From Acidobacteriota bacterium (GTDB lineage: Bacteria; Acidobacteriota; UBA4820; DSQY01): DNA of 50,789 bases. A program made the position numbers and the translations under genes. Positions within the stretch are counted from its first letter, which is position 1, and each line of letters starts with the position of its first letter. Shown in pieces: positions 5,250 to 21,751 of this stretch. Location: positions 1 to 50,789 of the forward strand of contig JAKBES010000002.1 of assembly GCA_021833665.1 (NCBI GenBank), written 5' to 3'. The notes beneath the pieces are model-generated. The model saw only the letters and a list, made by a program, of their open reading frames with translations, had not been told where the DNA came from and ran no database searches.

Positions 5250-6767
5250 ATGTCCACCTACCTCGCCACCTACCTCGACCTGATTCCCCTCGGGGCGAGC
5301 ATCGTCCAGATGCAGAACACGCTGGTGGGCAACCTCACGGCCAACGGCTGGCAACTGCTCGCCCAGGTGGATGGATTGGGGGGGTACTCCGACCTCATCC
5401 CGCCCGCTACGGAGCCCATCGGCACCAGCCAATTCCGGGAGGTCAGTCGGATTTACTTCCCGAACAACACCACCATCACCCTCGGCAGCTACCAGGGTTG
5501 CATCGCGGACGCCTTTCCCCAGCAGTTCCGCCTGACGGCACTCACGGGCGGGGCCGTGCAGGCGGGCGTCACCATTGGCGGGGTGACGGTGCAGGGCGCG
5601 GTCGGCAGCAGCGGCAGCACGGCGAACGACAACCTGCGCTCGCTCTACTACGCGCTGATGGACAGCGCCGATCCCACCATCACCGGCTGGACCTATACCC
5701 ACAACGGGACGGACACGCTGATTGGCACCCGCGCCACCATCGCGGCGGCTGTCGCCGTGACAGGAGCCAATGTGACCGTGGCGGTCCAGGGCATCCCGGT
5801 GCAGGCCGGGGCCCAGTCGGACTGGGCGCGGGTGGATCGGACGCACGGGTACAGCGTCACCACGGACCTGACCAACGGGTTCGTCTATTACATGGATGTT
5901 TTCTCTCGCAGCTTCTCACTCAGCACCAAGTGTCTCGCTGGGAACACGGGGCCCATCTTCGCCACGTACGCCGAGCATGCCAAGGCGCTGGCGGTGTGCC
6001 CCTCCTCGCCCTACTGCACCCCCATCGAGCTGCTGGTGGGCTCGCGCACGGCGGGGGGGATTGGTCAGGTCCACACCACGCATCTATGGGCCGTGGGCAC
6101 CCGATATGGGAATATGGCCGTGGCCAACACGGGCGTGGCCACGATGCTTTCCAACTGGAACGACACCACGGCAGAGTGGCACCCATTCTCGGGAGCTGGT
6201 GCGCCAAACGTCTTCATGGATTGCACGGGAGCCTATGCCGTAAGTAGTTATGGCTACAACCTGTTCGATCAATATGCGCTCCTCACTGGTGGGATTGTGG
6301 GGGCAGGGACCGCCTGGGATTCCGTATTCAAACTGGAAACCGTGGGACTACCCAGCTTTTCTATGGCCCGCCCGCAGCAGTCCTCGGTGCGGTTCTTCTC
6401 GCGCATCAACCTCCCGGATCTCTACCAGTGGAACGGCTCGGAACCCAACGAGACAGCGGCTATGGCGGTGGACCTGCTGGCCACGGGCACCCCGACCCTT
6501 CAGCAGGCCCTGGATGCCACCACGGCCTACACCACCTTCCTGCTGAGCGATGTCACCGGGCTCAGCCCCACAGGTGGCGGCTTCATCATTGGCAACGAGG
6601 AGTTCACCTATACCGGCCTGTCGGGCAACTCCCCCACGGGCATCACGCGAGCAGCGAACGGCACCACAGCGACCCGGCACTTCGTGGGCCATGCCGTTCG
6701 GCCCGTCACCTGGTTCCTGAAGGTGGGCGCGGCGGGCGTCTGCTGCGGCCCCACCAAGCCGGTGTAG
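5250..6767 (+). CDS. hypothetical tail-associated protein, 505 aa
   Basis: AGGAG before the ATG and native-looking codon usage. It directly follows the fibre gene. No family recognised. Confidence 0.6.
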   Translation: MSTYLATYLDLIPLGASIVQMQNTLVGNLTANGWQLLAQVDGLGGYSDLIPPATEPIGTSQFREVSRIYFPNNTTITLGSYQGCIADAFPQQFRLTALTGGAVQAGVTIGGVTVQGAVGSSGSTANDNLRSLYYALMDSADPTITGWTYTHNGTDTLIGTRATIAAAVAVTGANVTVAVQGIPVQAGAQSDWARVDRTHGYSVTTDLTNGFVYYMDVFSRSFSLSTKCLAGNTGPIFATYAEHAKALAVCPSSPYCTPIELLVGSRTAGGIGQVHTTHLWAVGTRYGNMAVANTGVATMLSNWNDTTAEWHPFSGAGAPNVFMDCTGAYAVSSYGYNLFDQYALLTGGIVGAGTAWDSVFKLETVGLPSFSMARPQQSSVRFFSRINLPDLYQWNGSEPNETAAMAVDLLATGTPTLQQALDATTAYTTFLLSDVTGLSPTGGGFIIGNEEFTYTGLSGNSPTGITRAANGTTATRHFVGHAVRPVTWFLKVGAAGVCCGPTKPV

Positions 6768-9854: not shown

Positions 9855-12800
9855 ATGTCCTTCAACCCTGATTTCAATCCGGACTTCAACCCTGACGCCA
9901 AGGCTACGGCCGAGGCCAAACCTTTCAACGCAGGGTTCAATCCGGACTTCAACCCGGATGCCAAGGCTACGGCCGAGGCCAAACCTTTCAACGCAGGGTT
10001 CAATCCGGACTTCAACCCGGATGCCGTGACTGCTCCCGTCGCCGTGGCCGACATGCCCTCCACGGCCGGCATCCCGCGATTCGCGGCCAACGAAGGCGAT
10101 AGCCCCCTCCAGGCACCTCCCAGGGCCCTTCAGGGCGCCATCGACCAGGCGAAGGCCGCCCACCAGGCCCTGGTGGAGAAGCTGGTGGCCCAGGGAATGT
10201 CCCGGGAGGATGCCGAAAACTACCAGGTCGGAACCCTCAGCGGCATGTCCCCCGAGGCCTGGCAAGAGACGCTGGCCCAGGACGAAGCGCGACGCAAGAG
10301 TGTGACCCAGCGGATCATCGAGGGGGCAGCCCACGGCGCGGCCACGCCCATTGTGACCCTGGCCAACACCCCCAGCGGCTTGATCCGGGAAGCAGGAAAG
10401 CTCACCGGATCCCAGGCCCTGGAGCAGGCCGGGGAGTCCCTGCGGCCCACGGAGGCACAGCAGATTCTACGGGACACGGCACCGCAGACCGGCGTCGGGA
10501 AGGCCGCGGATTTCCTCGGCAACGTGGGCATGTCCGTGCCGACCCTCGGCGTGCTCGGCACGGCCGGCTTCGCCACCCAGAGCGCCGGCAACACGATGAA
10601 CGAGGCACTGGACAAGGGCGCCAGCCCTGGGAAGGCCCTGGCGGCTGGCGGGCTCCAGGCGGCCAAGGACGTGGCCCTGATGACGGCTTTCAAGCTCGTG
10701 CCGAGCCTCCAGACCACCAACCCGGCCGTGGCCGCCACGGTGAACTCCCTTGCCAAGAACACAGGCATGGGCCTGACCCTGACCTACGGCGGCAACCTGA
10801 TCGACAAGCTGACCTGGGACCCGGAGCGGGGCGTCTTCGATGGAACCCAGCAGGCCCTGGCCACGGGCCTGGCCTTCGGCCTCCTCCATGTGCCGCAGGA
10901 GATGCGCGCCGCCGGCTACCGGCAGCTGGCCCTGGACCATCCGCAGGGCGTGGACGGGTACATCGCAGACCTGCAGGCGAAGAAGGATCTCCTCAGCAAG
11001 ACCGAGGGGGACATGCAGAACACCATCACCGTGAGCCCCGAGGGCAACCGCGTCGAGAATTACGACCGGCAGGCCTTCGACAAGGTGAACGGCTCCATCA
11101 CCGAGGCCCTGCGCGTGGCCAGGAAGTTCCGCGACCAGCTCCTGAAGCAGGGAAAACTGGACGCGGCTCTGGGCACCGGCCGGGTCAACACCCCCACCCC
11201 TTCCCCGGAGGCCCCCCGTGGCGAAAGCTCCCCAGAAGCCCCTGCCCCTGCCTCCCTCGCCGGAGGACCGCCGGTCCCAGCTCCAGAAGGCGGGAGCGGG
11301 CCTCTCCCGGGTGCAGGCCAAACGCCCGGCGCCCCGCCCCTCCCAGCCCCCATCCTCCCCGGTGCTGCCCCGGCCAATCATCCAGGAGTTCCCGCGCCGG
11401 GCAACGCCGGACCCGACAACCCTGCCGCAGGTCCTGGCCCTCAAGCCCCCGCCGAAGCCCCGGAAGTAGCCATTCTGGCCCAGCAGGTCCAGCAGCTTCA
11501 GGGACTCTCTGACCAGATGGCCGCTCGGGCGGCCCAGCATCCCCATGTGGAGGAGGCCCAGCAGGACGCCATTGAGGCGGAAGATTTGCTCCAGGCCGCG
11601 AAGGACCGGCTGGGCTACGTGGCGCCCGAGCACCCCCTTCTCGCGCCTCCTGGGGCCGCCTCTGGCCCAACTGGTAAGGATTCCTTACAGGTTGCCCAGG
11701 CGGCACAACCTGTACCGCAATCGGCACAACCTGTACCGGAACCAGCCCCGACGCCGGCCCAGGTCCAGGCCCTCCAGCCTTCGGGCCACGCCACGACACC
11801 TGCGGATCTGCCAACCCAAACGGAACAACCTGTACCCGAAGTATCTTCTTCCGGTACAGCCCCGGCCGCGCCTCCCGAGAGCCACACGCACACGGCTATG
11901 GACGAGACCTGGGTCCAGGGTAAAGCCCAAGGCCTCGGCCTCACCCTTCCTCGTTGGCAGCCAGGCATGGACACCGGGGCCTATCTGGAGAAGCGTGCCG
12001 AGTCCCTGGCGCAGAACCCCGACGCCTTCCTGAAGCTCTACCAGTCCATCCCCGAAACCATGGGCGGGAAGATCCTGGACGGTGACGTACTGGACATGCT
12101 CCTTAAGGGTGACCACCCCGAGCACTATGACCTGTTCAACAACTTCAAATGGTCGGATCCAGAACAGGAAATGTTCTACGAGGACCATTCCTCCAAACTC
12201 TACAAGACGCTCCTGAAGAACACCTTGGAGCAGCCTGCAAAGGCAGGAGAGCACTTCCTCATCACCATGGGGGCGCCAGGCAATGGCAAGTCCACTGTGG
12301 CTCAGGCCCTTCTGAGGGAACCCGGAGCAGAGCACGTCAAAGGCGTGATTGATACCCCTGGGCGGAACATCAATGACGTGGACAAGGTCATCCGCGCCGC
12401 CAGGGCCAAGGGCTACGCCGTGGATGTCCTCTTCGTGAAGCGGCCGGTTGAGGATGCGGTCAAGAGCCTCATGCTTCGAACCCGCCGGGAAGGGCGAGGC
12501 CTATCCCCTTTCGACACCTCGGAAATGGGCTTGTCCCAGGCTACAGGCCTGTTCCCAAAACTGGTGGGTCGGTTCGCCCAGACCCCAGGCGTGAACTTCC
12601 GCGTGATCGAGAACCGGACAGGGGCCCCCCACCAGGAGGTGGCAAACCTGCATGCCCACGGCCCGGAAGCCACCATTGCTGCGGGGAAGTTGGGCTACAT
12701 AGACCGAGCGGGTAAGCCAATCAATGGTCTTGAATTGGCAGGGAGAGCTGCCAAAGCCTACACTGACACGAGGGATACCCAAGATGCCCGAATCCACCCC

Positions 12801-15800
12801 GAATACATTAAGCGGTTCGACCCCGAGGTTACCAACGCCCTACGATCTCTCCAAGGTGTTCGAGAGCCAGTCGTTCAAGGACGGGGTGATGGAGATCGTG
12901 CACCAGAACGAGGCCAAGGAGCATCTGGCGGGGGAACGGGCACTCCAGAACAAGAAACGGGCGCAGGCCTGGGGCCAGGAGAACAGCCGGTCTCCAGAGG
13001 AAGTGGACCAGTACCGGAAACGCCTGGACAGCGGCAACCTGGAGTAGGCCGCCCCGGCATCCTGACGGGCGCCCGGGCCCTGGCCGGCACGGCCCCCGAC
13101 CACTTCGCCTACCCCTACCAGCAGCTGGGTGATGCGGTGGTGAGCCGGGCCCTGGCCGGCGAGAAACTGGACAACGTGGGCCTGCGCCGCCTGGCAGCCC
13201 AGTTCTTCCATGGCCAGCCCTCGCAGAAGGACCTCTACGACGCCATGGAACTCGGCCTGAACCGCCACATCCTGGCCCACCCCGAGCAGTTCAACGTGGA
13301 GCAGGTCCCCATTGAGGACGTGATCCAGAACCTGGAAGGGCTCGTCTCGAAGCTCCCCACCCAGACCCACCGGGAGGCCGGGGCCAACGAGTTCCAGCAG
13401 TACAGCACGCCCCCCTTCTACGCGGCCGTCGTGGCGTGGGTCGGGAAGGTCCAGCCCTCCGACCTGGTGCTGGAGCCCTCGGCCGGCGTCGGCGGCATCT
13501 CGGTCTTCCCGCGGCTGGCTGGGGCCCGAGTGATGGTCAACGAGTTCGACCGGGCGCGCCGGGCCAAGCTCCTGGAGGCCCTGCCCGGCTGGGAATCCAT
13601 CCGGACGGAAGATGCCCGGTTCATCCACGCTCACCTGCAGAAGGCAGGGGCCCGGCCCACCGTAGTCCTGATGAATCCGCCCTTCTCCAGCACCTCGGGG
13701 AAGGTCCATGGCAAGCGGGACTCGGCCCAAGGGGTGAAGCACATCGACGCGGCCCTGGCCTCCTTGGTCCCTGGCGGGCGCCTAGTGGCGATCATGGGCG
13801 ACATGGAGGGCGCCGCCTGGCGGGCCTACCAGAGCCGCCTCCAGGCCGACCCCAACGTGACGATCCGGGCCCTGGTGGGCGTGGACGGGAAGGCCTACCG
13901 CAAGTACGGCACCACCTTCGACTCGGTGGTGCTGGTCATGGACAAGGTTCCCCCCGTTCCTGGGGCCAAGCCCATCACGGGCAAAGTTGCCAATCTGGAA
14001 GAATTGGCCGATCTTTTGAAGGGGGTCCGCAATGACCGACCTGGTGACCAGCCTGGAAGCCTTTCCTCTCAACCGAGCGGCGGCCCGGCTCCTGAAGCTG
14101 CAGGGGCTCCCGGTGCTGTCCAGCAGCCAGCCGCTGACGCAGGCGGTGGCCGAGGGCCTAAACCACTGGAATCCCAGGGGGGACCAGGACAGCCGAGTGC
14201 TGCCGCGAATCGCCCGGCTGGCGGAAGCGGGAAGCCCGGAGGCCTTCGCGGAGGCGCTGCGCCCGTTCATGTGGCCCCTGGCGTGGGACCCGAAGCAGGC
14301 GAAGGTGGAGGGGCTGCCCCCGTACGGCCCGGAAACGCTGGACCAGTACCTGCCGGCGAACCTGGCGGCCGAGGCGGGGAAGTGCAAGAACCTGTCCGAA
14401 CTCCTGAACATCCTGGAGGGGCAGGAGGCCTGGACGTTCAAAATGACCACGTAGCCCCGGTCCAGGCGCAGACCCTCAAGGCCCCGGCACGCGCCGCAGA
14501 GGCCGACGAGAACCCCGATTCGGTCTTCGCCAACTACCGGCCTTCGAAGGTCTCCTTCCCGGGCTCCCAGCCTCACCTGGGCGACCTGGTGGAGTCCCAG
14601 GCCATGTCCGCGGTGGACCTGCCGGACGCCCGGCCCACGACGAAGCTGCACCTGCCGGAGGAGATGATCAAGACCGGCAAGCTGTCGGAGGCCCAGCTCG
14701 AGGCGGACTATTACGCGACCCAGGCCACGAACCAGATGCTGGATGACGGCCGGCGCCAGGGCTTCCTCATCGGCGACGGGACCGGTGTCGGCAAGGGGCG
14801 CGAGATCGCGGGCTTCATCATGTCCACCCTGAACGCCGGGCATGGGGGCGGCAAGGCGGTGTGGCTCTCGAAGAACACCGACCTCTTTCGGGATGCCACG
14901 CGGGACTGGACCGGCATCGGAGGCCATCCGGACCACCTCATCGACCTCTCCAAGATCAAGGCCACCGAGGGCGCCAAGGGCGCCAAGACAGTGGCGCCCA
15001 TCCCCGTGGAGAAGGGCGTCCTCTTCGGCACCTACGCCGCGGTCACGGGCGAGAAGGGCGAGGTTCCCGGGGCGCGGAAGCTCCAGCTCCAGGAATGGCT
15101 CGGACCCGACTTCGACGGCGCGATCGTGCTGGACGAGGCCCACCTGGCCTCGAACCTCGGCCTGGCCCGAACCAGCCGCGGAAAGGCGAAGCCCTCCCAG
15201 ACGGCCACCGGCATGATGGAGATCCAGCGCATGTTCCCGAAGGCCCGGGTGGTCTACGTGACCGCCACGGTGGCCAGCGACCCCTCCCAGCTGGCCTTCC
15301 TGGACCGCCTGGGCCTCTGGGGGAAAGGCAAATCCTTCGACCGGGCGGCGGATCTCCTGGCGGCCGTGGACAACGCGGGCCTCGCCGGCATGGAACTGGT
15401 GGCCCGTGACCTGAAGGCGCGAGGCCTCTACATCGCCCGGAACCTCAGCTACCACGGCGTCAATTACCGGACCCTGGAGCATCGGCTGTCGTCGGACCAG
15501 ACCGTGGCCTACAACACGGCCGCGGGGGCCTGGCAGAAGGTGCTGGAGAACGTCCACCAGGTCATCGAGGACATGACCGGCGGCAAGAATTCCGGCAAGG
15601 CCAAGGGGGCGGCCCTTTCCAAGTTCTACGGGCAGCAGCAGGCCTTCTTCAACAGCCTGCTCACCAGCCTCACGTTGCCCTCCGCCTTCGCCGACATGCA
15701 GAAGGCCCTCGAGGCAGGCCACAGCGTCGTCGTCCAGCTCACCGAGACCGGGGAGGCCCGCCAGGGCCGGTCCATCGAAGAGGCCACCCAGCGGGCTAAG

Positions 15801-18800
15801 GAAACCGGCGAGGACATGGACGTGGCCGCCCTGGACCTCAGCCCGAAGGACATCCTCATCGGCTTCCTAAAGTCCGGCTTCCCCGTGAATGCCCTGGAGG
15901 AGGTGGAGGACGACCACGGGAACAAGTTCTGGCAGGTGGTCCGGGATGCCGCCGGGAACCCCGTGGAGGATCCCGAGGCCGTGGCCAAGCGGGACGCGCT
16001 GATCGCCGAGATCGCCACCCTCAACCTGCCCGGGTCCGCCCTGGACGAGATCCTGAAGGAGTTCGGGACGGACAAGGTGACGGAGATCACGGGCCGAAGC
16101 GAACGGCGGGTCTTCCTGCCGGATGGAACCGCCAAGATCGAGAAGCGCACCGACAAGCAGGTGGAGGCAGACAAGAACGCCTTCATGGGCGACCAGAAGC
16201 GCATCCTCATCTTCTCCAAGGCGGCCAACACCGGCATGAGCTTCCATGCCGACAACACGGCCCAGAACCGGACCAAGCGCATCCACTACGTCCTGCAGGG
16301 CGGGTGGAACGCCGCGGACGCCATCCAGGGCCTCGGCCGCACCCACCGCACCAACCAGGCCCAGGCCCCGGAGTATGTGCTGGTCACGACCGACCTGGGC
16401 GGCCACAAGCGGTTCACCTCCACCATCGCCCGCCGCATCTCCCAGCTGGGGGCCCTCACCAAGGGCCAGCGCCAGGCCAGCGCCAGCCTCTTCACCGAGA
16501 AGGACAACCTGGAGAGCCCCACCGCCCTGCGGGCCCTCTCTGCCTGGTACGACCAGATCATGCAGGGCCCCATCCCCCTCCCCAACGGGGACAGCCTCTC
16601 CGAGGCGGAGTTCGAGGACGCGACCGGCCTGCACCTCCGGGACCACCAGGGCATGCCGCTCCTGGAACGGCCGCCCATGAAGAAGTTCCTGAACCGCGTG
16701 CTGGCCCTGCCGGTGGACCAGCAGAACGCCACGTTCGACTCCCTGGCCCACCGGATCGAGGAGCAGTACCACCTGGACGAGCAGGCGGGCCTGCTGGAAA
16801 AGGGCCTCCAGAACATCCCCGTGGTGAGCGCCAAGGTGGTGGAGGAGGACCCCTTCTACAAGGACGAGGACACCGGGGCGAAGACGGTCTACCAGAAGAT
16901 CGAGGCCCGGCAGAAGGTGAACTACCTGGACTTCGACAAGATCAACCAGAAGAGCCGCGACTTCGAGGGGTTCTACCAGGATCCCAAGCGCAAGATCCCC
17001 TTCGCCATCACGAAGGGTCGCGCCGAGATGAAGCCGGATGGGACCGTGATCCAGCACTACAAGCTGGCCGGCCCGACCACCATCGCCTACCGCAGCAACC
17101 TCGATTTCGAGAAGCTGGAGCAGCTGGACCCGCAGCAGGCCAAGGAGGCCTGGGAGGCCTACAAGCAGGAGAACGGGGACACGGCCACCAAGAACTTCCA
17201 CATGATCACGGGGGCCATGCTCAACATCTGGAACCGGTTCCCCGCGAACCTCCCCATGGAGGTGGGCCGGATCCGGCTTTCGAACGGCAACACGGCCATG
17301 GGGCGCCTCATCCCCGAGTCCCGCCTGACCGAAGTGCTCCAGCGCATCGGCGCCGAGAAGGCTCTGGATGCCAGCCAGAAGGCCCTGCGGGACATGAAGG
17401 GATCGGGAGTGCTGGATTCTGTGCTCCGGGATGGCCGGATCGTCTCCCTGGCCAACGGCTTCCGGGTGCAGCCCGTGCGCCGGAGCGGCGAGTACTTCGC
17501 GGTGCTCGACGGAGTGCCCCACCAGAGCGCGATGCACGCCCTGGTCCAGCAGTACCAGGGCTGGCGCATGGAGCAGTTCCAGGGCCAGTACGGCGCCCAG
17601 TACAAGGTGGTCATCCCGGATAACCCCGAAGCCAAGGCCAGCCTGGACACCTACCTCAAAGCCGCCCCGGTGCGCTCTGTCTCGGAACCCAGGCCCGGGT
17701 GGGTGCGTCCCCGCGAGGGTGAGCGTGGCGCCGCAGCCGTGGAGCTCCTGACGGCGCCGGCCAAGGTGGTCCAGGCCATCGCGCGCGGCCCGGTCGGGGA
17801 GGCCCTGCGCGGGGCAAAGGACATGCTCAAGGCCGTCGTGGCGCCAGCGACCATCAATGAGATGAGCCAGCGGGCCGCGGACATCCACAGCGGGAAGCTG
17901 GCCCAGCTGCACCTGCAGGACGCGCGCGCGCGGAAGGTGCTCGAGCATGCCCACAAAGCCATGGCGGGGATGACCAAGGACCAGGTGCTGGACCTCTTCG
18001 ATGTGCTGGAGGGGAAGGAAGACCTCTCCACCATCGAGGACCCAAAGATCGCAGACGCCATCAACTTCATGCGGAAGACCCTGGAGCAGGACTACCTGGA
18101 CGTGGTTGCGACCGGGAAGAGCCTCAACTACATCGAGAACTACTTCCCCCACATGTACGCCAAGCCAGAGAAGGCCCGGCCATTCCTAGAGGAGTATGCC
18201 AAGCGGCCCATGGCCGGGCGGCAGGATTGGGCCAAACACCGCTCCATCCCCTACCTCTCCGAGGCGGTGCGGGAGCGGGGCCTGGAACCGGCCTCCTGGA
18301 ACCCCATTGACCTCTTCCTGGCCCGGCACTTCGATATGCAGAAGTTCGTCGCAGCCCACCAGATCCTCGATGCCTTCAAGAAGGAGCGGGTTGGCGGTGC
18401 GAAGATCATCCGGTACTACAAGGCCATCCAGACGCCGCCCGAGGGCTTCGTCAAGCTGGATGACCGCATCGCGGAGATCACCAGCATCCGCTCAGCCCTC
18501 GTGAAGAGCCCGGAAACGGGTAGGTTTGAGGGGAAGCCACTGCTCCCTGGCTCGAAGATCACCTACGGCAGCTACTACGCCCCTGCGGCCGTGGCCCGGA
18601 TCTTCAACAACTACCTCTCCCCAGGCCTGGACGGGACCCTGCTGCGCACGCCCTACCGGTTTGTCCGGAGGGCCAACAACTTCCTCAACATGGGTCAGCT
18701 CGGGCTCTCCGGGTTCCACGCCACCTTCATCACCATTGAGGGCGCGGCCGGGAGCCTCAGCCGCGGCATGATGAAAATCATCCGGGATGGGAATCCGGAG

Positions 18801-20525
18801 GGGCTTCTGGACATTCTGAAGGGGGCTGCCCTGCCCGTCTCGGTGGCCGAAACCTTCAAGGAGGGCTTGGACTTCCGGAAGGCCCTGCTCTCCGAGGACT
18901 GCCCGCCCGAGTTCAAACCCCTGCGGGATATGTTCATCCGCGGTGGCGGCCGGGTCTCCATGGACACGGAGTACGAGGCCGGCTTCACCAAGCAGTTCAT
19001 GGATGCCTGGCGCACGGCCCTGGGTGGTTCCGGCGTGCTGGAGGCCATGCTGGGGAAGGATGGAGTCTACCAGCGCAGCCGCGGCAAGGAGGTCTGGGAA
19101 CGGGCCATCGCCGCCGGCAAGGGCACCATGGCAGCCCCGTTCGCCCTGGTGGAAGCCCTCGCGGCCCCGATCATGAAGGTCTACGTGCCCATCATGAAGC
19201 TGGGGACCATGGCGCAGCTCTTCGCGGACGAGATGGCCCGGCTGCCGGAGGATGCCACGCCAGCCCAGATTGACCGGGTGGCCCGGAAGGTGGTGGACCA
19301 CGTGGAAGACCGCATGGGCCAGATGACCTACGACAACCTGCACTGGCACGCCTTCACCAAGCAGGTCATGCAGCTGTCCTTCCGGGCCGTGGGCTGGGAT
19401 GTGGGCTCCTGGCGCATGATCCTCGGCGCCGGCCAGGACACCCTGGCCATGGCCCCGCGGGCGGCCCGCGCCCTGGCCTCGACGATGACGAGCGACCCCG
19501 AGGCCAAGAAGTTTCTCGATGACGCGCGCGCGCACCGCGATCGGATGGCGGGCGAGTTCGGGCACAACCGCTGGTTCACCTACAACATGGCCCAGACCTT
19601 CGCCGTCGTGGCGATGGTGGGCCTGCTGTCAGGCCTGCTCACCTGGATCTTCACGGGGGAGCCGCCGAAGGACCTTCAGGACCTCCGGCATTTCCGCACC
19701 GGGCGCATGGACAAGTACGGGAAGCCCGAGCGCCGGCAGTTCGCCAGCTACATGAAGGAGATCGAGGACATCCTCTACATCACGGCGGAGTCCAGCCACT
19801 TCAACTTCTCGCCCGCCATGCAGTACCTGTGGGGGAAGAAGGCGCCCTGGCTGAACGCCCTGGTGAAATTCGGGGGCAACAAGGACTGGCGGGGCCAGCA
19901 GGTCTACACGCCCATCACCGAGGGGCACCCCAAGAAGACGCTCGAGGACCTGGGCAAGGCCGCCCTGCTGGAGCTCTCGCCCATCTCCCTGGTCCAGTCG
20001 GCGGAAAAGTGGGACGTGCAGGGTGGGTGGAAGTCGATCCTTCCGGCCGCAGGCCTGACCAAGCCGAAACAGGAGAACGTCAACACGAAGGCCGAGAACC
20101 GCCTGGTGGAGATGCTGGCCGACCGCATGCCCCGGGTCATCGAGAAGACCAAGGGGGATCGGGAGTCCCAGCTGCGCATCGCCAAGGACGCCTTCGTGCT
20201 GGGCAACCGGAAGCCCATGGAGGAGCTCCAGAAGGAGGGCCTGCTGACGGCCCGGGACCAGAAGAGCATCATGCGGAACTTCCAGGCCCAGTCACTTATC
20301 GTCCGTCTTTCGAACGCTACCAACATCCAGGCAGACGATTTAATGAAGATCTGGGACGACATGACGCCGCAGGAGAAGTCCGCGGTGTTCCCAGCCATGG
20401 CTCGAAAGATTGGCACGGCCTTCCGATCTACGCCCCCAGCCCAGCGAGACGCCCTCAAAGAAAAGTGGAACCAGATCAAGCAAGAAGTAAAATCAATCAA
20501 GGCGGAGCCGCGATCTTCTAGTTAG
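9855..20525 (+). CDS. giant polyvalent (P1 DarB-like) virion/ejection protein, 3,556 aa: zeta-kinase-like, N6-adenine MTase, Strawberry-notch-type SF2 helicase and a long C-terminal region
   Basis: A single open frame of 10,671 nt with AGGAGAAGGA before the ATG. Motifs seen are ITMGAPGNGKST, LEPSAGVGG followed by VVLMNPPFS, GDGTGVGKGR, VLDEAH and QGLGRTHRTNQ. See the findings for frame anomalies at two linkers. Confidence 0.8.
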   Translation: MSFNPDFNPDFNPDAKATAEAKPFNAGFNPDFNPDAKATAEAKPFNAGFNPDFNPDAVTAPVAVADMPSTAGIPRFAANEGDSPLQAPPRALQGAIDQAKAAHQALVEKLVAQGMSREDAENYQVGTLSGMSPEAWQETLAQDEARRKSVTQRIIEGAAHGAATPIVTLANTPSGLIREAGKLTGSQALEQAGESLRPTEAQQILRDTAPQTGVGKAADFLGNVGMSVPTLGVLGTAGFATQSAGNTMNEALDKGASPGKALAAGGLQAAKDVALMTAFKLVPSLQTTNPAVAATVNSLAKNTGMGLTLTYGGNLIDKLTWDPERGVFDGTQQALATGLAFGLLHVPQEMRAAGYRQLALDHPQGVDGYIADLQAKKDLLSKTEGDMQNTITVSPEGNRVENYDRQAFDKVNGSITEALRVARKFRDQLLKQGKLDAALGTGRVNTPTPSPEAPRGESSPEAPAPASLAGGPPVPAPEGGSGPLPGAGQTPGAPPLPAPILPGAAPANHPGVPAPGNAGPDNPAAGPGPQAPAEAPEVAILAQQVQQLQGLSDQMAARAAQHPHVEEAQQDAIEAEDLLQAAKDRLGYVAPEHPLLAPPGAASGPTGKDSLQVAQAAQPVPQSAQPVPEPAPTPAQVQALQPSGHATTPADLPTQTEQPVPEVSSSGTAPAAPPESHTHTAMDETWVQGKAQGLGLTLPRWQPGMDTGAYLEKRAESLAQNPDAFLKLYQSIPETMGGKILDGDVLDMLLKGDHPEHYDLFNNFKWSDPEQEMFYEDHSSKLYKTLLKNTLEQPAKAGEHFLITMGAPGNGKSTVAQALLREPGAEHVKGVIDTPGRNINDVDKVIRAARAKGYAVDVLFVKRPVEDAVKSLMLRTRREGRGLSPFDTSEMGLSQATGLFPKLVGRFAQTPGVNFRVIENRTGAPHQEVANLHAHGPEATIAAGKLGYIDRAGKPINGLELAGRAAKAYTDTRDTQDARIHPEYIKRFDPEVTNALRSLQGVREPVVQGRGDGDRAPERGQGASGGGTGTPEQETGAGLGPGEQPVSRGSGPVPETPGQRQPGVGRPGILTGARALAGTAPDHFAYPYQQLGDAVVSRALAGEKLDNVGLRRLAAQFFHGQPSQKDLYDAMELGLNRHILAHPEQFNVEQVPIEDVIQNLEGLVSKLPTQTHREAGANEFQQYSTPPFYAAVVAWVGKVQPSDLVLEPSAGVGGISVFPRLAGARVMVNEFDRARRAKLLEALPGWESIRTEDARFIHAHLQKAGARPTVVLMNPPFSSTSGKVHGKRDSAQGVKHIDAALASLVPGGRLVAIMGDMEGAAWRAYQSRLQADPNVTIRALVGVDGKAYRKYGTTFDSVVLVMDKVPPVPGAKPITGKVANLEELADLLKGVRNDRPGDQPGSLSSQPSGGPAPEAAGAPGAVQQPAADAGGGRGPKPLESQGGPGQPSAAANRPAGGSGKPGGLRGGAAPVHVAPGVGPEAGEGGGAAPVRPGNAGPVPAGEPGGRGGEVQEPVRTPEHPGGAGGLDVQNDHVAPVQAQTLKAPARAAEADENPDSVFANYRPSKVSFPGSQPHLGDLVESQAMSAVDLPDARPTTKLHLPEEMIKTGKLSEAQLEADYYATQATNQMLDDGRRQGFLIGDGTGVGKGREIAGFIMSTLNAGHGGGKAVWLSKNTDLFRDATRDWTGIGGHPDHLIDLSKIKATEGAKGAKTVAPIPVEKGVLFGTYAAVTGEKGEVPGARKLQLQEWLGPDFDGAIVLDEAHLASNLGLARTSRGKAKPSQTATGMMEIQRMFPKARVVYVTATVASDPSQLAFLDRLGLWGKGKSFDRAADLLAAVDNAGLAGMELVARDLKARGLYIARNLSYHGVNYRTLEHRLSSDQTVAYNTAAGAWQKVLENVHQVIEDMTGGKNSGKAKGAALSKFYGQQQAFFNSLLTSLTLPSAFADMQKALEAGHSVVVQLTETGEARQGRSIEEATQRAKETGEDMDVAALDLSPKDILIGFLKSGFPVNALEEVEDDHGNKFWQVVRDAAGNPVEDPEAVAKRDALIAEIATLNLPGSALDEILKEFGTDKVTEITGRSERRVFLPDGTAKIEKRTDKQVEADKNAFMGDQKRILIFSKAANTGMSFHADNTAQNRTKRIHYVLQGGWNAADAIQGLGRTHRTNQAQAPEYVLVTTDLGGHKRFTSTIARRISQLGALTKGQRQASASLFTEKDNLESPTALRALSAWYDQIMQGPIPLPNGDSLSEAEFEDATGLHLRDHQGMPLLERPPMKKFLNRVLALPVDQQNATFDSLAHRIEEQYHLDEQAGLLEKGLQNIPVVSAKVVEEDPFYKDEDTGAKTVYQKIEARQKVNYLDFDKINQKSRDFEGFYQDPKRKIPFAITKGRAEMKPDGTVIQHYKLAGPTTIAYRSNLDFEKLEQLDPQQAKEAWEAYKQENGDTATKNFHMITGAMLNIWNRFPANLPMEVGRIRLSNGNTAMGRLIPESRLTEVLQRIGAEKALDASQKALRDMKGSGVLDSVLRDGRIVSLANGFRVQPVRRSGEYFAVLDGVPHQSAMHALVQQYQGWRMEQFQGQYGAQYKVVIPDNPEAKASLDTYLKAAPVRSVSEPRPGWVRPREGERGAAAVELLTAPAKVVQAIARGPVGEALRGAKDMLKAVVAPATINEMSQRAADIHSGKLAQLHLQDARARKVLEHAHKAMAGMTKDQVLDLFDVLEGKEDLSTIEDPKIADAINFMRKTLEQDYLDVVATGKSLNYIENYFPHMYAKPEKARPFLEEYAKRPMAGRQDWAKHRSIPYLSEAVRERGLEPASWNPIDLFLARHFDMQKFVAAHQILDAFKKERVGGAKIIRYYKAIQTPPEGFVKLDDRIAEITSIRSALVKSPETGRFEGKPLLPGSKITYGSYYAPAAVARIFNNYLSPGLDGTLLRTPYRFVRRANNFLNMGQLGLSGFHATFITIEGAAGSLSRGMMKIIRDGNPEGLLDILKGAALPVSVAETFKEGLDFRKALLSEDCPPEFKPLRDMFIRGGGRVSMDTEYEAGFTKQFMDAWRTALGGSGVLEAMLGKDGVYQRSRGKEVWERAIAAGKGTMAAPFALVEALAAPIMKVYVPIMKLGTMAQLFADEMARLPEDATPAQIDRVARKVVDHVEDRMGQMTYDNLHWHAFTKQVMQLSFRAVGWDVGSWRMILGAGQDTLAMAPRAARALASTMTSDPEAKKFLDDARAHRDRMAGEFGHNRWFTYNMAQTFAVVAMVGLLSGLLTWIFTGEPPKDLQDLRHFRTGRMDKYGKPERRQFASYMKEIEDILYITAESSHFNFSPAMQYLWGKKAPWLNALVKFGGNKDWRGQQVYTPITEGHPKKTLEDLGKAALLELSPISLVQSAEKWDVQGGWKSILPAAGLTKPKQENVNTKAENRLVEMLADRMPRVIEKTKGDRESQLRIAKDAFVLGNRKPMEELQKEGLLTARDQKSIMRNFQAQSLIVRLSNATNIQADDLMKIWDDMTPQEKSAVFPAMARKIGTAFRSTPPAQRDALKEKWNQIKQEVKSIKAEPRSSS
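9873..10025 (+). repeat. 63-bp tandem repeat, about 2.4 copies (FNPDFNPDAKATAEAKPFNAG)
   Basis: Copies at 9873-9935 and 9936-9998 are near-identical, and a partial third copy starts at 9999. All are in frame at the N-terminus of the giant ORF. Confidence 0.9.
12050..12650 (+). other. zeta-toxin-like P-loop kinase domain of the giant ORF (approximate bounds)
   Basis: Walker A GAPGNGKS at about 12270-12293, followed by ..KGYAVDVLFVKRPVEDAVKSLMLRTRREGR, which resembles zeta/AAA_33-type kinases. Confidence 0.55.
12784..13047 (+). CDS. nested +1-frame ORF, 87 aa, at the kinase-MTase junction
   Basis: GAGGGA lies 8 nt before the ATG, and the ORF ends in TAG. From 12841 on, 59/68 codons end in G/C (hand count) against 22/69 in the giant frame. 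The sequence is helical and charged rather than low complexity. Confidence 0.4.
   Translation: MPESTPNTLSGSTPRLPTPYDLSKVFESQSFKDGVMEIVHQNEAKEHLAGERALQNKKRAQAWGQENSRSPEEVDQYRKRLDSGNLE
13100..13950 (+). other. gamma-class N6-adenine DNA methyltransferase domain of the giant ORF (approximate bounds)
   Basis: Motif I LEPSAGVGG (about 13470-13496) precedes motif IV NPPF (VVLMNPPFS, about 13663-13689). Confidence 0.75.
14032..14454 (+). CDS. nested +1-frame ORF, 140 aa, at the MTase-helicase junction
   Basis: AAGGGGG, a 6-nt spacer and ATG at the start, and TAG at the end. 127/140 codons end in G/C (hand count) against about 66/141 in the giant frame. The W/F/L-containing sequence looks globular. 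Confidence 0.5.
   Translation: MTDLVTSLEAFPLNRAAARLLKLQGLPVLSSSQPLTQAVAEGLNHWNPRGDQDSRVLPRIARLAEAGSPEAFAEALRPFMWPLAWDPKQAKVEGLPPYGPETLDQYLPANLAAEAGKCKNLSELLNILEGQEAWTFKMTT
14690..16500 (+). other. Strawberry-notch-type SF2 helicase core of the giant ORF (approximate bounds)
   Basis: Motif I GFLIGDGTGVGKGREIAG (about 14760), motif II IVLDEAHLA (about 15124) and motif VI IQGLGRTHRTNQAQAPEY (about 16322). Confidence 0.8.
19596..19652 (+). other. predicted transmembrane helix in the C-terminal region of the giant ORF
   Basis: TFAVVAMVGLLSGLLTWIF is the only strongly hydrophobic 19-mer I saw in the last ~950 aa. Confidence 0.45.
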
Positions 20526-20557
20526 GCATGAACAACCTGATAGAAAATGGTGATTAA

Positions 20558-20911
20558 ATGATCGCGCTTCTGCAAGTTATCCAAGGCGCCACGGGTGCAT
20601 CCGACCCGGAGCGCACCTTCGTTTCCCTCAGCAGCTTCGACTGGGCCACGGTCATGGTGCTTGGGGCCATCGCCTGGTTCTTCTTCGTGCGGGACTACCG
20701 CAGCAGGGACGAACTGGCGAAGACCGTGAAGGCCCTGGCAGATGCGGTATCAGACCTCCGCGCCTTGATGGCCGAGCAGTACGTGAGCAAGGACGATCAC
20801 CGCCGGGAGATCGACCGCCTCTCGGATGACATCGACACCTGGGCCAACCGGTTCCAGCGGGATCTGGAGAGCCATCGGGATGAGTGTGCCGCCCGGCGGC
20901 CGGCTCAGTGA
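20558..20911 (+). CDS. holin-like protein (one TM helix plus charged coiled-coil-like tail), 117 aa
   Basis: The TM segment is WATVMVLGAIAWFFFV. The gene lies directly upstream of the endolysin. Confidence 0.4.
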   Translation: MIALLQVIQGATGASDPERTFVSLSSFDWATVMVLGAIAWFFFVRDYRSRDELAKTVKALADAVSDLRALMAEQYVSKDDHRREIDRLSDDIDTWANRFQRDLESHRDECAARRPAQ

Positions 20912-20925
20912 AGGAGAGCCACACC

Positions 20926-21465
20926 ATGGCCCTGGACCTCGAAGCCCACATCACCGAGAACTTCCAATGGAAGGAGTTCCTCCACAGCGATGCGGCCGCG
21001 CACGCTGGCGTGGCCTTCCCGGAGCCTCCGGAGGACATCCAGGCCAACATCCGCAAGGTGGCGGCGAAGGCCGAGGAAGCCAGGGGCATCCTGGGTGTGC
21101 GGGTGAACATCCACAGCGGCTGGCGCCCCACCGAGCCGGTGGACATCAATAAGCTGGCCGGGTCCGTCTCGAAGACCAGCGCCCACATCGAAGGGCTGGC
21201 GGCTGACCTATCCCCGGAAGGGATGCAGATCCCTGATGCCCTGCGGACGCTCGTGAACCACCCCACCTTCATGGAGGGCGTGGACCAGTTGATCAACGAG
21301 CGGGGGTGCCTGCACATGGGCCTGCCGTGCAAGGCCAGCGAGTACCAGCCCCGGCATGAGGTCAGGGGCGAGACCTACATCCAGAACCCCAAGACGAAGC
21401 AGGTGGAGCGGCACTACCCGCTGCTCTTCGTCTGGAAGCCCAGCCCGGGGGTGGCCCATGTTTGA
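20926..21465 (+). CDS. endolysin, peptidase M15 (D-Ala-D-Ala carboxypeptidase-like / L-Ala-D-Glu peptidase) family, 179 aa
   Basis: AAGGAG lies 8 nt before ATG 20926. Motifs are SGWRP..., SKTSAHIEGLAADL and ERGCLHMG, matching the SG(Y/W)R / SxHxxGxAxD / H zinc-ligand pattern. Confidence 0.8.
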   Translation: MALDLEAHITENFQWKEFLHSDAAAHAGVAFPEPPEDIQANIRKVAAKAEEARGILGVRVNIHSGWRPTEPVDINKLAGSVSKTSAHIEGLAADLSPEGMQIPDALRTLVNHPTFMEGVDQLINERGCLHMGLPCKASEYQPRHEVRGETYIQNPKTKQVERHYPLLFVWKPSPGVAHV

Positions 21466-21751
21466 AGCGATGCTGGCATGGCTCAAGAAGACCGGGAGGA
21501 TTGACCTGGGGCGGGCCTTCAACAGCCAGGATCCCACCCTGGAGGTCAACCTGCTGGCCTACGGGTTCGGCGTGCTGATGACGGCGGTATGGCTCTCCCT
21601 GGCCCTTCGCCGGTACGGGCTGGATGGGAACTGGGTGACGGCCCTGGGCCTGTTCCTGGGTGCCGTGACCGGTGGCCTCTTCAAGAAAGGTGCGAATGCG
21701 AACCAGAGCGGCAAGGCCCCGGGAACGCAGGACAAGGAAGGTGAGCCATGA
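21458..21751 (+). CDS. second holin-like membrane protein (two TM helices), 97 aa
   Basis: The ATG overlaps the endolysin stop (ATGTTTGA). TM segments are LLAYGFGVLMTAVWLSLAL and WVTALGLFLGAVTGGLF. Confidence 0.45.
   Translation: MFEAMLAWLKKTGRIDLGRAFNSQDPTLEVNLLAYGFGVLMTAVWLSLALRRYGLDGNWVTALGLFLGAVTGGLFKKGANANQSGKAPGTQDKEGEP

Follow-up and report, generated by a model that had tools for sequence, protein, structure and literature searches.

How can one uninterrupted reading frame carry, at two of its domain junctions, stretches whose codon usage belongs to another frame? The question is raised by a giant open reading frame (ORF) of 3556 aa, identified as a polyvalent-protein gene, at positions 9855-20525 on the plus strand of contig JAKBES010000002.1 of an Acidobacteriota bacterium (assembly GCA_021833665.1). 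The whole analysed stretch of 50,789 nt is referred to as the window. The ORF list and the translation show the giant ORF to be continuous through two smaller ORFs that lie inside it, on the same strand and in the +1 frame: X (140 aa, 14032-14454), between an N6-adenine DNA methyltransferase module and a strawberry-notch-type helicase, and Y (87 aa, 12784-13047), behind a P-loop kinase-like module. Comparison with related loci shows that both frames are conserved and open across X and across a plasmid counterpart, X2, that X and X2 are under purifying selection, and that the giant frame is selected to stay open. We consider it probable that the segment 14032-14454 is dual-coding, being read through as part of the giant ORF and also translated from a start of its own into a separate folded protein.

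Codon usage changes frame at two domain junctions

The original prediction, made from the sequence of the window alone, held that native-looking codon usage passes to the +1 frame at both junctions, and a sliding frame-specific profile of third-position G + C (GC3) bears this out. The giant frame has a GC3 of 0.84-1.00 over most of its length, but only 0.34-0.56 around 12780-13080 and around 13980-14500, where the +1 frame reaches 0.80-0.96. Codons ending in G or C, which had been counted by hand, gave identical numbers when computed, namely 127/140 for X against 66/141 in the giant frame, and 59/68 against 22/69 for the core of Y (12841-13044). The sequence landmarks are also as described: GTAG is present at both +1 stops, AAGGGGG at 14019-14025 is followed after a 6-nt spacer by the ATG of X at 14032, whose TAG stop lies at 14452-14454, and homopolymer runs CCC (12838-12840) and GGGGG (14021-14025) lie near the switch points.

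Such a profile might arise from composition alone, if a Gly/Pro/Ala-rich linker mimicked the GC3 of a coding +1 frame and the +1 ORFs were chance open frames in high-GC DNA. Long off-frame ORFs are indeed common in the window, which has 65% GC, and a third flip at about 11130-11950, absent from the earlier prediction, behaves exactly in this way. The +1 ORFs within this third flip (11218-11469 and 11545-12033) are R/P-rich, the +1 frame there contains stops, and divergence between the window and L012, a 12-kb metagenomic relative and the one long one, is highest at giant codon position 3. The segment was therefore rejected as another embedded gene; it is an ordinary, native P/A-rich linker on the plus strand, with a central conserved helix (AILAQQVQQLQ...HPHVEEAQ...), and serves as an internal control. 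For X and Y the frame still flips under a log-odds score of synonymous codon choice, which is independent of amino-acid composition. The score is 0.53 +/- 0.11 for reference windows in the true frame and -0.56 +/- 0.23 for those read out of frame; X scores +0.42 in the +1 frame and -0.60 in the giant frame, and the core of Y +0.41 and -0.97, respectively. For X, the phase of substitutions and the selection estimates given below favour the +1 frame, a confident fold is predicted and standalone homologs exist, and the dual-frame layout recurs at moderate GC. A compositional artefact, which we find scarcely credible, is refuted for X and X2, while for Y only the codon-score argument applies.

X is a conserved protein encoded within the giant gene

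Six homologs of X with 63-73% identity (139-149 aa) were found, and a profile search of 1.84 billion representatives added four more distant ones, so that the family spans 139-154 aa and is metagenomic. In eight of eight lineages where it is embedded (the window, L001, L002, L008, L009/L012, L010, L013 and L015), X is placed in the +1 frame between the C-terminus of the methylase and the N-terminus of the helicase, and these divergent metagenomic lineages keep its Shine-Dalgarno sequence (SD), ATG and stop at matching places. The original prediction had left it to related loci to tell whether the parts are split or fused: the relatives are fused, and X is conserved in them.

The pattern of substitutions follows the frame of X. 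In its flanks, divergence is greatest at giant-frame position 3 (0.40-0.43, alignment A1), and inside X it is greatest at position 3 of X (0.398 versus 0.239 and 0.228 at the two others, same alignment). The ratio of nonsynonymous to synonymous divergence (dN/dS), calculated with the NG86 method, which is biased in overlapping regions and is used here only comparatively, is 0.24-0.48 (about 0.36) when the columns are read in the frame of X and 1.3-2.25 (about 1.7) when the same ones are read in the giant frame. In dS, X (0.59-0.95) hardly differs from the helicase flank (0.56-0.97), so the amino-acid sequence of the linker imposes no visible constraint. Synonymous sites of the X lineages have nearly reached saturation (dS 0.6-1.1), and codon usage therefore reflects present constraint and not the age of the frame. 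These values bear on the possibility that the +1 segments are unexpressed fossils, swallowed by a frameshift or read-through fusion, whose codon signal has not yet decayed. Over both ORFs taken together we judge this improbable; for X it is refuted by a dN/dS of about 0.36 at near-saturated dS and by the conserved start and stop. Its standing for Y is considered further below.

An AlphaFold2 model of X built from seven sequences predicts an all-alpha fold of ten helices (pLDDT 88.7, pTM 0.83). Searches by tblastn against phages and plasmids and a scan of viral contigs were empty for X, as was a megablast of the region 12500-14700 against phages, and the methylase-linker-helicase segment gave no tblastn match in phages at 1e-10. 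X represents a previously undescribed protein family.

Two members of the family are standalone genes in other mobile-element settings. In L014 the gene follows a DUF932 gene near an XRE helix-turn-helix gene, and in L016 and L017 it lies near MazE/PIN. In the latter two (L016 2095-2466 and L017 223-594, from two samples), the C-terminal third is in another frame, reading ...EGPALWPQHF... where ...PYGPSTLEDY... is expected, which may mean that the copy is in decay.

Selection keeps the giant frame open across X

Neither the giant frame nor the X frame contains a single stop across X in any of the eight embedded lineages; in the standalone copies the frame corresponding to the giant one contains 3 and 5 stops, in agreement with a permutation expectation of about 4. 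When synonymous codons are permuted, the probability of finding no stop is 0.05-0.87 per embedded lineage, and the product, 8e-7, is an upper bound on significance that overstates independence because the lineages are related. The third sense frame across X contains 5-8 stops in the eight metagenomic lineages. A six-frame stop count over all 12 embedded lineages, those with X and those with X2, finds exactly two frames open throughout, 5-16 stops in the third sense frame, and no antisense frame that is open in all 12.

A 646-aa antisense ORF is present on the minus strand at 13782-15722, with a wobble phase that coincides with that of X. It was rejected as a real gene, antisense frames having stops in most lineages, and is a high-GC shadow ORF.

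Read in the giant frame, the overlap has the composition of a flexible tether, with 19-26% Gly in addition to Pro and Ala, and only 1-6% F/W/Y/C/I/L/M. Downstream of it, a variable giant-frame spacer (14455-14520, plus strand) leads from the X stop to the helicase module. No start codon occurs in this spacer, whose indels among relatives are multiples of 3. More generally, the helicase module is without a conserved start between the X stop and the motif DS(V/I)F..Y(R/E)PSKV(S/T/A)F. The earlier claim that the downstream modules have no usable start of their own thus holds: in the window, the giant frame has no ATG, GTG or TTG after the X stop until GTG 14589, which is inside the conserved helicase domain, and the same codons are missing from the giant frame across 13047-13130, downstream of the Y stop.

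These observations settle, for X, one of the two explanations originally offered, according to which indels from sequencing or assembly, or recent real frameshifts, have joined what are three or more genes ending at 13047, 14454 and 20525. The homopolymer runs near both switches would suit it, and gene callers do split the locus on short metagenomic contigs. Yet the layout is found in eight metagenomic lineages and four plasmid records, two of them RefSeq entries with a single giant coding sequence (CDS); X is provided with a conserved SD and ATG of its own, preceded in the window and L001 by a nearby in-frame stop; the modules downstream of both +1 stops have no start codons, and selection keeps the giant frame open. 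Moreover, the methylase of L012 is joined in-frame to its upstream module without any Y. The explanation is refuted for X, and for the locus as a whole we give it very little chance.

The predicted start of X lies within the last codons of the methylase

The SD of X, AAGGGGG (14019-14025, plus strand), lies within the giant-frame codons L-K-G-V. GG.GTCCG..ATG is invariant in alignment A1, and an SD-like GG(G/A)G, a spacer of 6-8 nt and the ATG are likewise invariant in the X alignment, consistent with a ribosome-binding site. A +1-frame stop is present four codons upstream of the ATG in the window and L001. The giant-frame motif L-(K/E)-(G/A)-(V/I)-R-N-D doubles as SD and ATG in the window (14010-14034) and in the plasmid loci L018, L019, L021 and L022. 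This motif is missing from four inspected plasmid homologs that have no embedded ORF, suggesting that its conservation may be driven by the second frame. A terminator-like hairpin at 13989-14008 was discarded, being within chance expectation.

Programmed ribosomal frameshifting would offer another route to X, with a +1 shift near 14021-14025 and a return near 14450, X being then an in-line domain or a trans-frame product. In the window, a GGGGG run does stand 7 nt before the X ATG. In most relatives, however, GGAG or GGGAG stands in place of this run, and what does not vary is the ATG together with an SD-like purine tract; a +1 stop also stands ahead of the ATG in the window and L001. No conserved slippery heptamer is present at the X stop, and no Rfam element reaches the gathering score, the one match (E = 0.2) being far below. 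Frameshifting would also not need the giant frame to be open, yet this frame is selected open. We therefore regard frameshifting as very unlikely. Insertion of a self-splicing intron, an intein or a homing endonuclease was rejected as well, as there is no Rfam match near the gathering score in 11000-15000 and no Pfam, PHROG or NCBIfam match for X or Y, and the host frame is open through the insert.

Conjugative plasmids carry a counterpart at the same site

A tblastn search with the methylase-linker-helicase segment matched 600 plasmid records of fused "strawberry notch-like" proteins. The four closest, at about 44% identity, are conjugative plasmids of Gammaproteobacteria (NC_019941.1, CP157007.1, NZ_CP064652.1 and NC_016108.1), and all four have in their long linker a complete +1 ORF of 114-117 aa, X2. 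Its ATG sits in the giant-frame motif L-E-(G/A)-I-R-N-D, at the same place as the ATG of X, and is preceded by GGAGG in three of the four; the fourth, L022, has a weaker GAAGG (TTAGAAGG). In the two RefSeq plasmid records that carry annotation, the giant CDS (3236 and 2547 aa) is the only one given over X2, and X2 has no Pfam, PHROG or NCBIfam match.

The same two-frame signature is found here. NG86 dN/dS is 0.11-0.39 in the X2 frame versus 1.45-2.2 in the giant frame. In the low-GC loci L019 and L021, the codon usage of the flanks predicts 6.7-6.9 giant-frame stops over X2 and none is seen (P of an open giant frame 2e-4 to 6e-4), while T occupies 5% of X2 third positions versus 30-35% in the flanks. 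This depletion of stops and T in low-GC plasmids is the strongest single evidence of selection on both frames. The dual-frame layout accordingly extends to a GC of 0.46-0.51, where chance open frames are rare.

The arrangement appears to be old, as judged from its distribution, being common to the phage-like clade, with X, and to the closest plasmid relatives, with X2 at the same start site and a different body. No embedded ORF is present in four inspected alphaproteobacterial plasmid homologs, which have linkers of 48-290 nt. Since fusions without an embedded gene are widespread in plasmids, the methylase-helicase fusion may predate the embedded gene. The embedded gene may have been captured into the linker as a pre-existing gene or may have been born within it.

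The giant CDS of Methylomonas has additional stretches that are open in the +1 frame. They were rejected as embedded genes, for they are not conserved in the CDS of M. alcaliphilum 20Z, the only other full-length plasmid CDS with which the Methylomonas one was compared. In the Thioflavicoccus record NC_019941.1, the methylase-helicase region at about 17017-21720 (L018 1803-6506) is without a CDS in the PLSDB table and the C-terminal part of the helicase has a protein annotation of its own; the giant gene may be regarded there as split or as a pseudogene.

Y, a second candidate behind a kinase-like module

Y presents some of the features of X in a less complete form. Its codon usage is native-like over the core, and its first 19 codons or so overlap native giant-frame coding. 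A candidate SD, GAGGGA (12770-12775, plus strand), stands 8 nt before its ATG at 12784, and just upstream of this lies a sigma-70-like promoter match, TTGGCA-18-TACACT (12735-12764, plus strand). This is a consensus match only, although it is the sole one in 12500-14700, with one found versus 0.1 expected in shuffles. A single-sequence AlphaFold2 model predicts helices at residues 29-66 and 71-83 (pLDDT 78.7, pTM 0.37). Y has no Pfam, PHROG or NCBIfam match; a weak match to BTH_I0359 (E = 0.02) is far below the cutoff.

The module preceding Y (11898-12840, plus strand) is an orphan, P-loop kinase-like domain with weak Pfam matches to Zeta_toxin and AAA_33 below the cutoff (18.8 bits for Zeta_toxin, where 22.3 is required) and no match in viral or genome contigs; module and Y together have no relative in any of the collections searched. 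A zeta-toxin/antitoxin-like pairing of the module with Y, which would call for a kinase domain above the family cutoff and a small cognate antitoxin, was also considered, and these sub-threshold matches are what it yielded. Its codon score of 0.04 +/- 0.16 (maximum 0.28) versus 0.52 for the rest of the giant ORF, with a GC3 of about 0.75, makes it look like a recently swapped-in cargo. In L012 a GGDEF module stands where the window has the kinase-like one, and the methylase is fused to it in-frame, Y being absent.

Directly behind the GGDEF module of L012, at 6071-6262, is a 63-aa +1 ORF, here Y', with AGGAG, 7 nt and an ATG. Its GC3 is 0.84 in the +1 frame versus 0.36-0.42 in the giant frame. 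Together, Y and this ORF suggest that the frame-flip pattern may recur at cargo-module junctions.

The possibility that Y is an unexpressed fossil is consistent with its lack of homologs, with a coding signal that begins about 50 nt after its own ATG (switch point about 12832-12855), with the apparently recent acquisition of the adjacent orphan module of atypical codon usage, and with the similar candidate ORF behind the GGDEF module of L012. On the other hand, the ORF is intact, with a plausible SD and a promoter-like match, and its codon score of 0.41 is above every window of the kinase-like module. The latter also argues, weakly, against Y being the old C-terminus of this module. Such a frameshift fusion was probed with a hybrid query that joined the kinase-like module in frame 0 to the +1-frame tail of Y; it had no match in phages, in plasmids or among a set of 5.8 billion proteins. 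Judging by its intrinsic signals only, Y is most likely the same kind of embedded gene as X, behind a kinase-like cargo module, and it may be either a live gene or a relic.

The giant protein and its surroundings

The helicase of the giant protein was recognized by Pfam matches to AAA_34 (aa 1573-1888) and Helicase_C_4 (aa 2062-2319), which delimit a strawberry-notch-type core at 14571-16811 on the plus strand. The methyltransferase module (13077-14028, plus strand) has an NPPF motif in its translation and ends with the conserved L-K-G-V-R-N-D. It is 74% identical to that of L012 and 33-41% identical to those of seven inspected plasmid strawberry-notch-like loci, and it has no match in genome contigs. 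The N-terminus (9855-10030) contains FNPD repeats and a duplicated 23-residue unit (FNPDFNPDAKATAEAKPFNAG...).

Genes for an integrase, a DnaB-like helicase and a collagen/F5_F8 tail-fibre-like protein are neighbours of the giant ORF, so that the element looks like a temperate phage. The assignment as a polyvalent protein is based on AAA_34, Helicase_C_4, the NPPF methylase, an LPD38 domain in the L001 homolog, and these phage-type neighbours. The plasmid homologs adjoin TraD and Topo III.

A gene and a probable tether in the same DNA

According to the dual-coding reading, the giant polyvalent ORF would be translated straight through X, where its bases would yield a stop-free, hydrophilic, Gly/Pro/Ala-rich tether running from the methyltransferase to the strawberry-notch helicase. 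Ribosomes would also start independently at the SD and ATG contained in the final conserved codons of the methylase, L-(K/E)-G-(V/I)-R-N-D, and this second start would give the separate, all-alpha protein X of 140 aa from the +1 frame. Selection would act on the amino-acid sequence of X, and in the giant frame only against stops and bulky T-initial codons. Codon usage would thus be native in the +1 frame and off-frame in the giant one because selection sees the sequence of X and only the openness of the giant frame. As to its role, our guess is that X serves the methylase-helicase protein as partner, regulator or chaperone and is produced in step with it.

The first explanation in the original prediction stands in part. 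X is best regarded as an overprinted gene that is still alive and subject to purifying selection, the giant linker being its out-of-frame read-through. The history proposed there, a frameshift fusion of older genes whose 3' ends became linkers, is not demonstrated: the linker overlies a whole small gene and not the old 3' end of the methylase, and the fusion may, as noted, be older than the embedded gene.

Several points weigh against the dual-coding reading. Translation of both products is deduced from sequence, and the NG86 bias and the relatedness of the lineages temper the selection estimates, as stated with them. Foldseek, run with the X model, returned nothing with E < 1 from PDB or BFVD, and X has no Pfam, PHROG or NCBIfam match. 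An hhalign comparison of X and X2 aligns only a 25-column N-terminal motif, PLNxxAxxLL (E 0.0076, probability 5%), and beyond it they are not demonstrably homologous; no homology is claimed. As regards Y, the sole entry retrieved by a protein search is the one from the window itself, the openness of the giant frame over it is not significant (P = 0.19), and its coding signal sets in late, as described above.

A broader proposal would make out-of-frame embedded genes a general building principle of polyvalent proteins, with each swappable cargo module followed by a small partner gene of its own: the zeta-toxin-like kinase by Y, the GGDEF module of L012 by Y', and the methylase by X or X2. The partners would be immunity factors, chaperones or regulators, and the carrier would read their genes in the -1 frame as linkers. 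We think this unlikely at present. If true, the tether and a co-expressed partner for the adjacent domain would both come from one and the same DNA.

Comparison with known systems

To our knowledge, genes lying wholly within another gene on the same strand are rare in bacteria and DNA phages, and the reported cases are mostly anecdotal. Annotation pipelines do not allow such genes, and database annotation misses the arrangement described here. A search combining a codon-usage frame flip with a six-frame stop count across relatives would find more such genes. The methylase-helicase dyad is used by phages and conjugative plasmids early in host entry, and X and X2 are candidate partners or regulators of an anti-restriction-type weapon. 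By its avoidance of T, the embedded gene has its synonymous sites visibly adjusted to the need of the tether. The locus shows a way in which an interdomain linker and an overlapping gene can coexist.

Same-strand genes nested in a shifted frame, with both products made, are known in phages from Rz1 in Rz of lambda and from B in A and E in D of phiX174. X resembles them in lying wholly within another phage gene in a shifted frame. Those pairs are short and both of their proteins are constrained over the overlap, whereas the constraint over X is asymmetric, bearing on the amino-acid sequence in one frame and on a stop-free, hydrophilic composition in the other.

The small regulatory peptide ComS of Bacillus subtilis, of about 46 aa, offers another parallel. 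Its gene, comS, lies with its own start, out of frame and co-transcribed, within the giant multi-module ORF srfAB (PMC12915044), and in this respect the layout is that of X. ComS, however, overlies an enzymatic nonribosomal peptide synthetase module, whereas X and X2 (114-154 aa, predicted folded) overlie an unconstrained interdomain tether, and the carrier of X is a polyvalent protein of a mobile element.

In viral overprinting, overlapping frames have been compared by their codon usage (Pavesi et al. 2013, PMC3744397; reviewed in PMC8227390). As there, one frame of the locus has genome-like codon usage and a folded product, and the other is compositionally biased and disordered. The classic disordered product is a new accessory protein, whereas here it is a linker in a pre-existing multidomain protein, and with synonymous sites saturated codon usage cannot date the frames.

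Finally, polyvalent proteins with a DNA methylase-helicase dyad have been described by Iyer et al. 2017 (PMC5512222), and the giant protein of the window agrees with them as a phage-like carrier of an adenine methylase, a strawberry-notch SWI2/SNF2 ATPase and swappable cargo modules. The words overlap, frameshift and linker are absent from that paper (PMC5512222), and the embedded genes X and X2 are an addition that lies outside the architecture described there.

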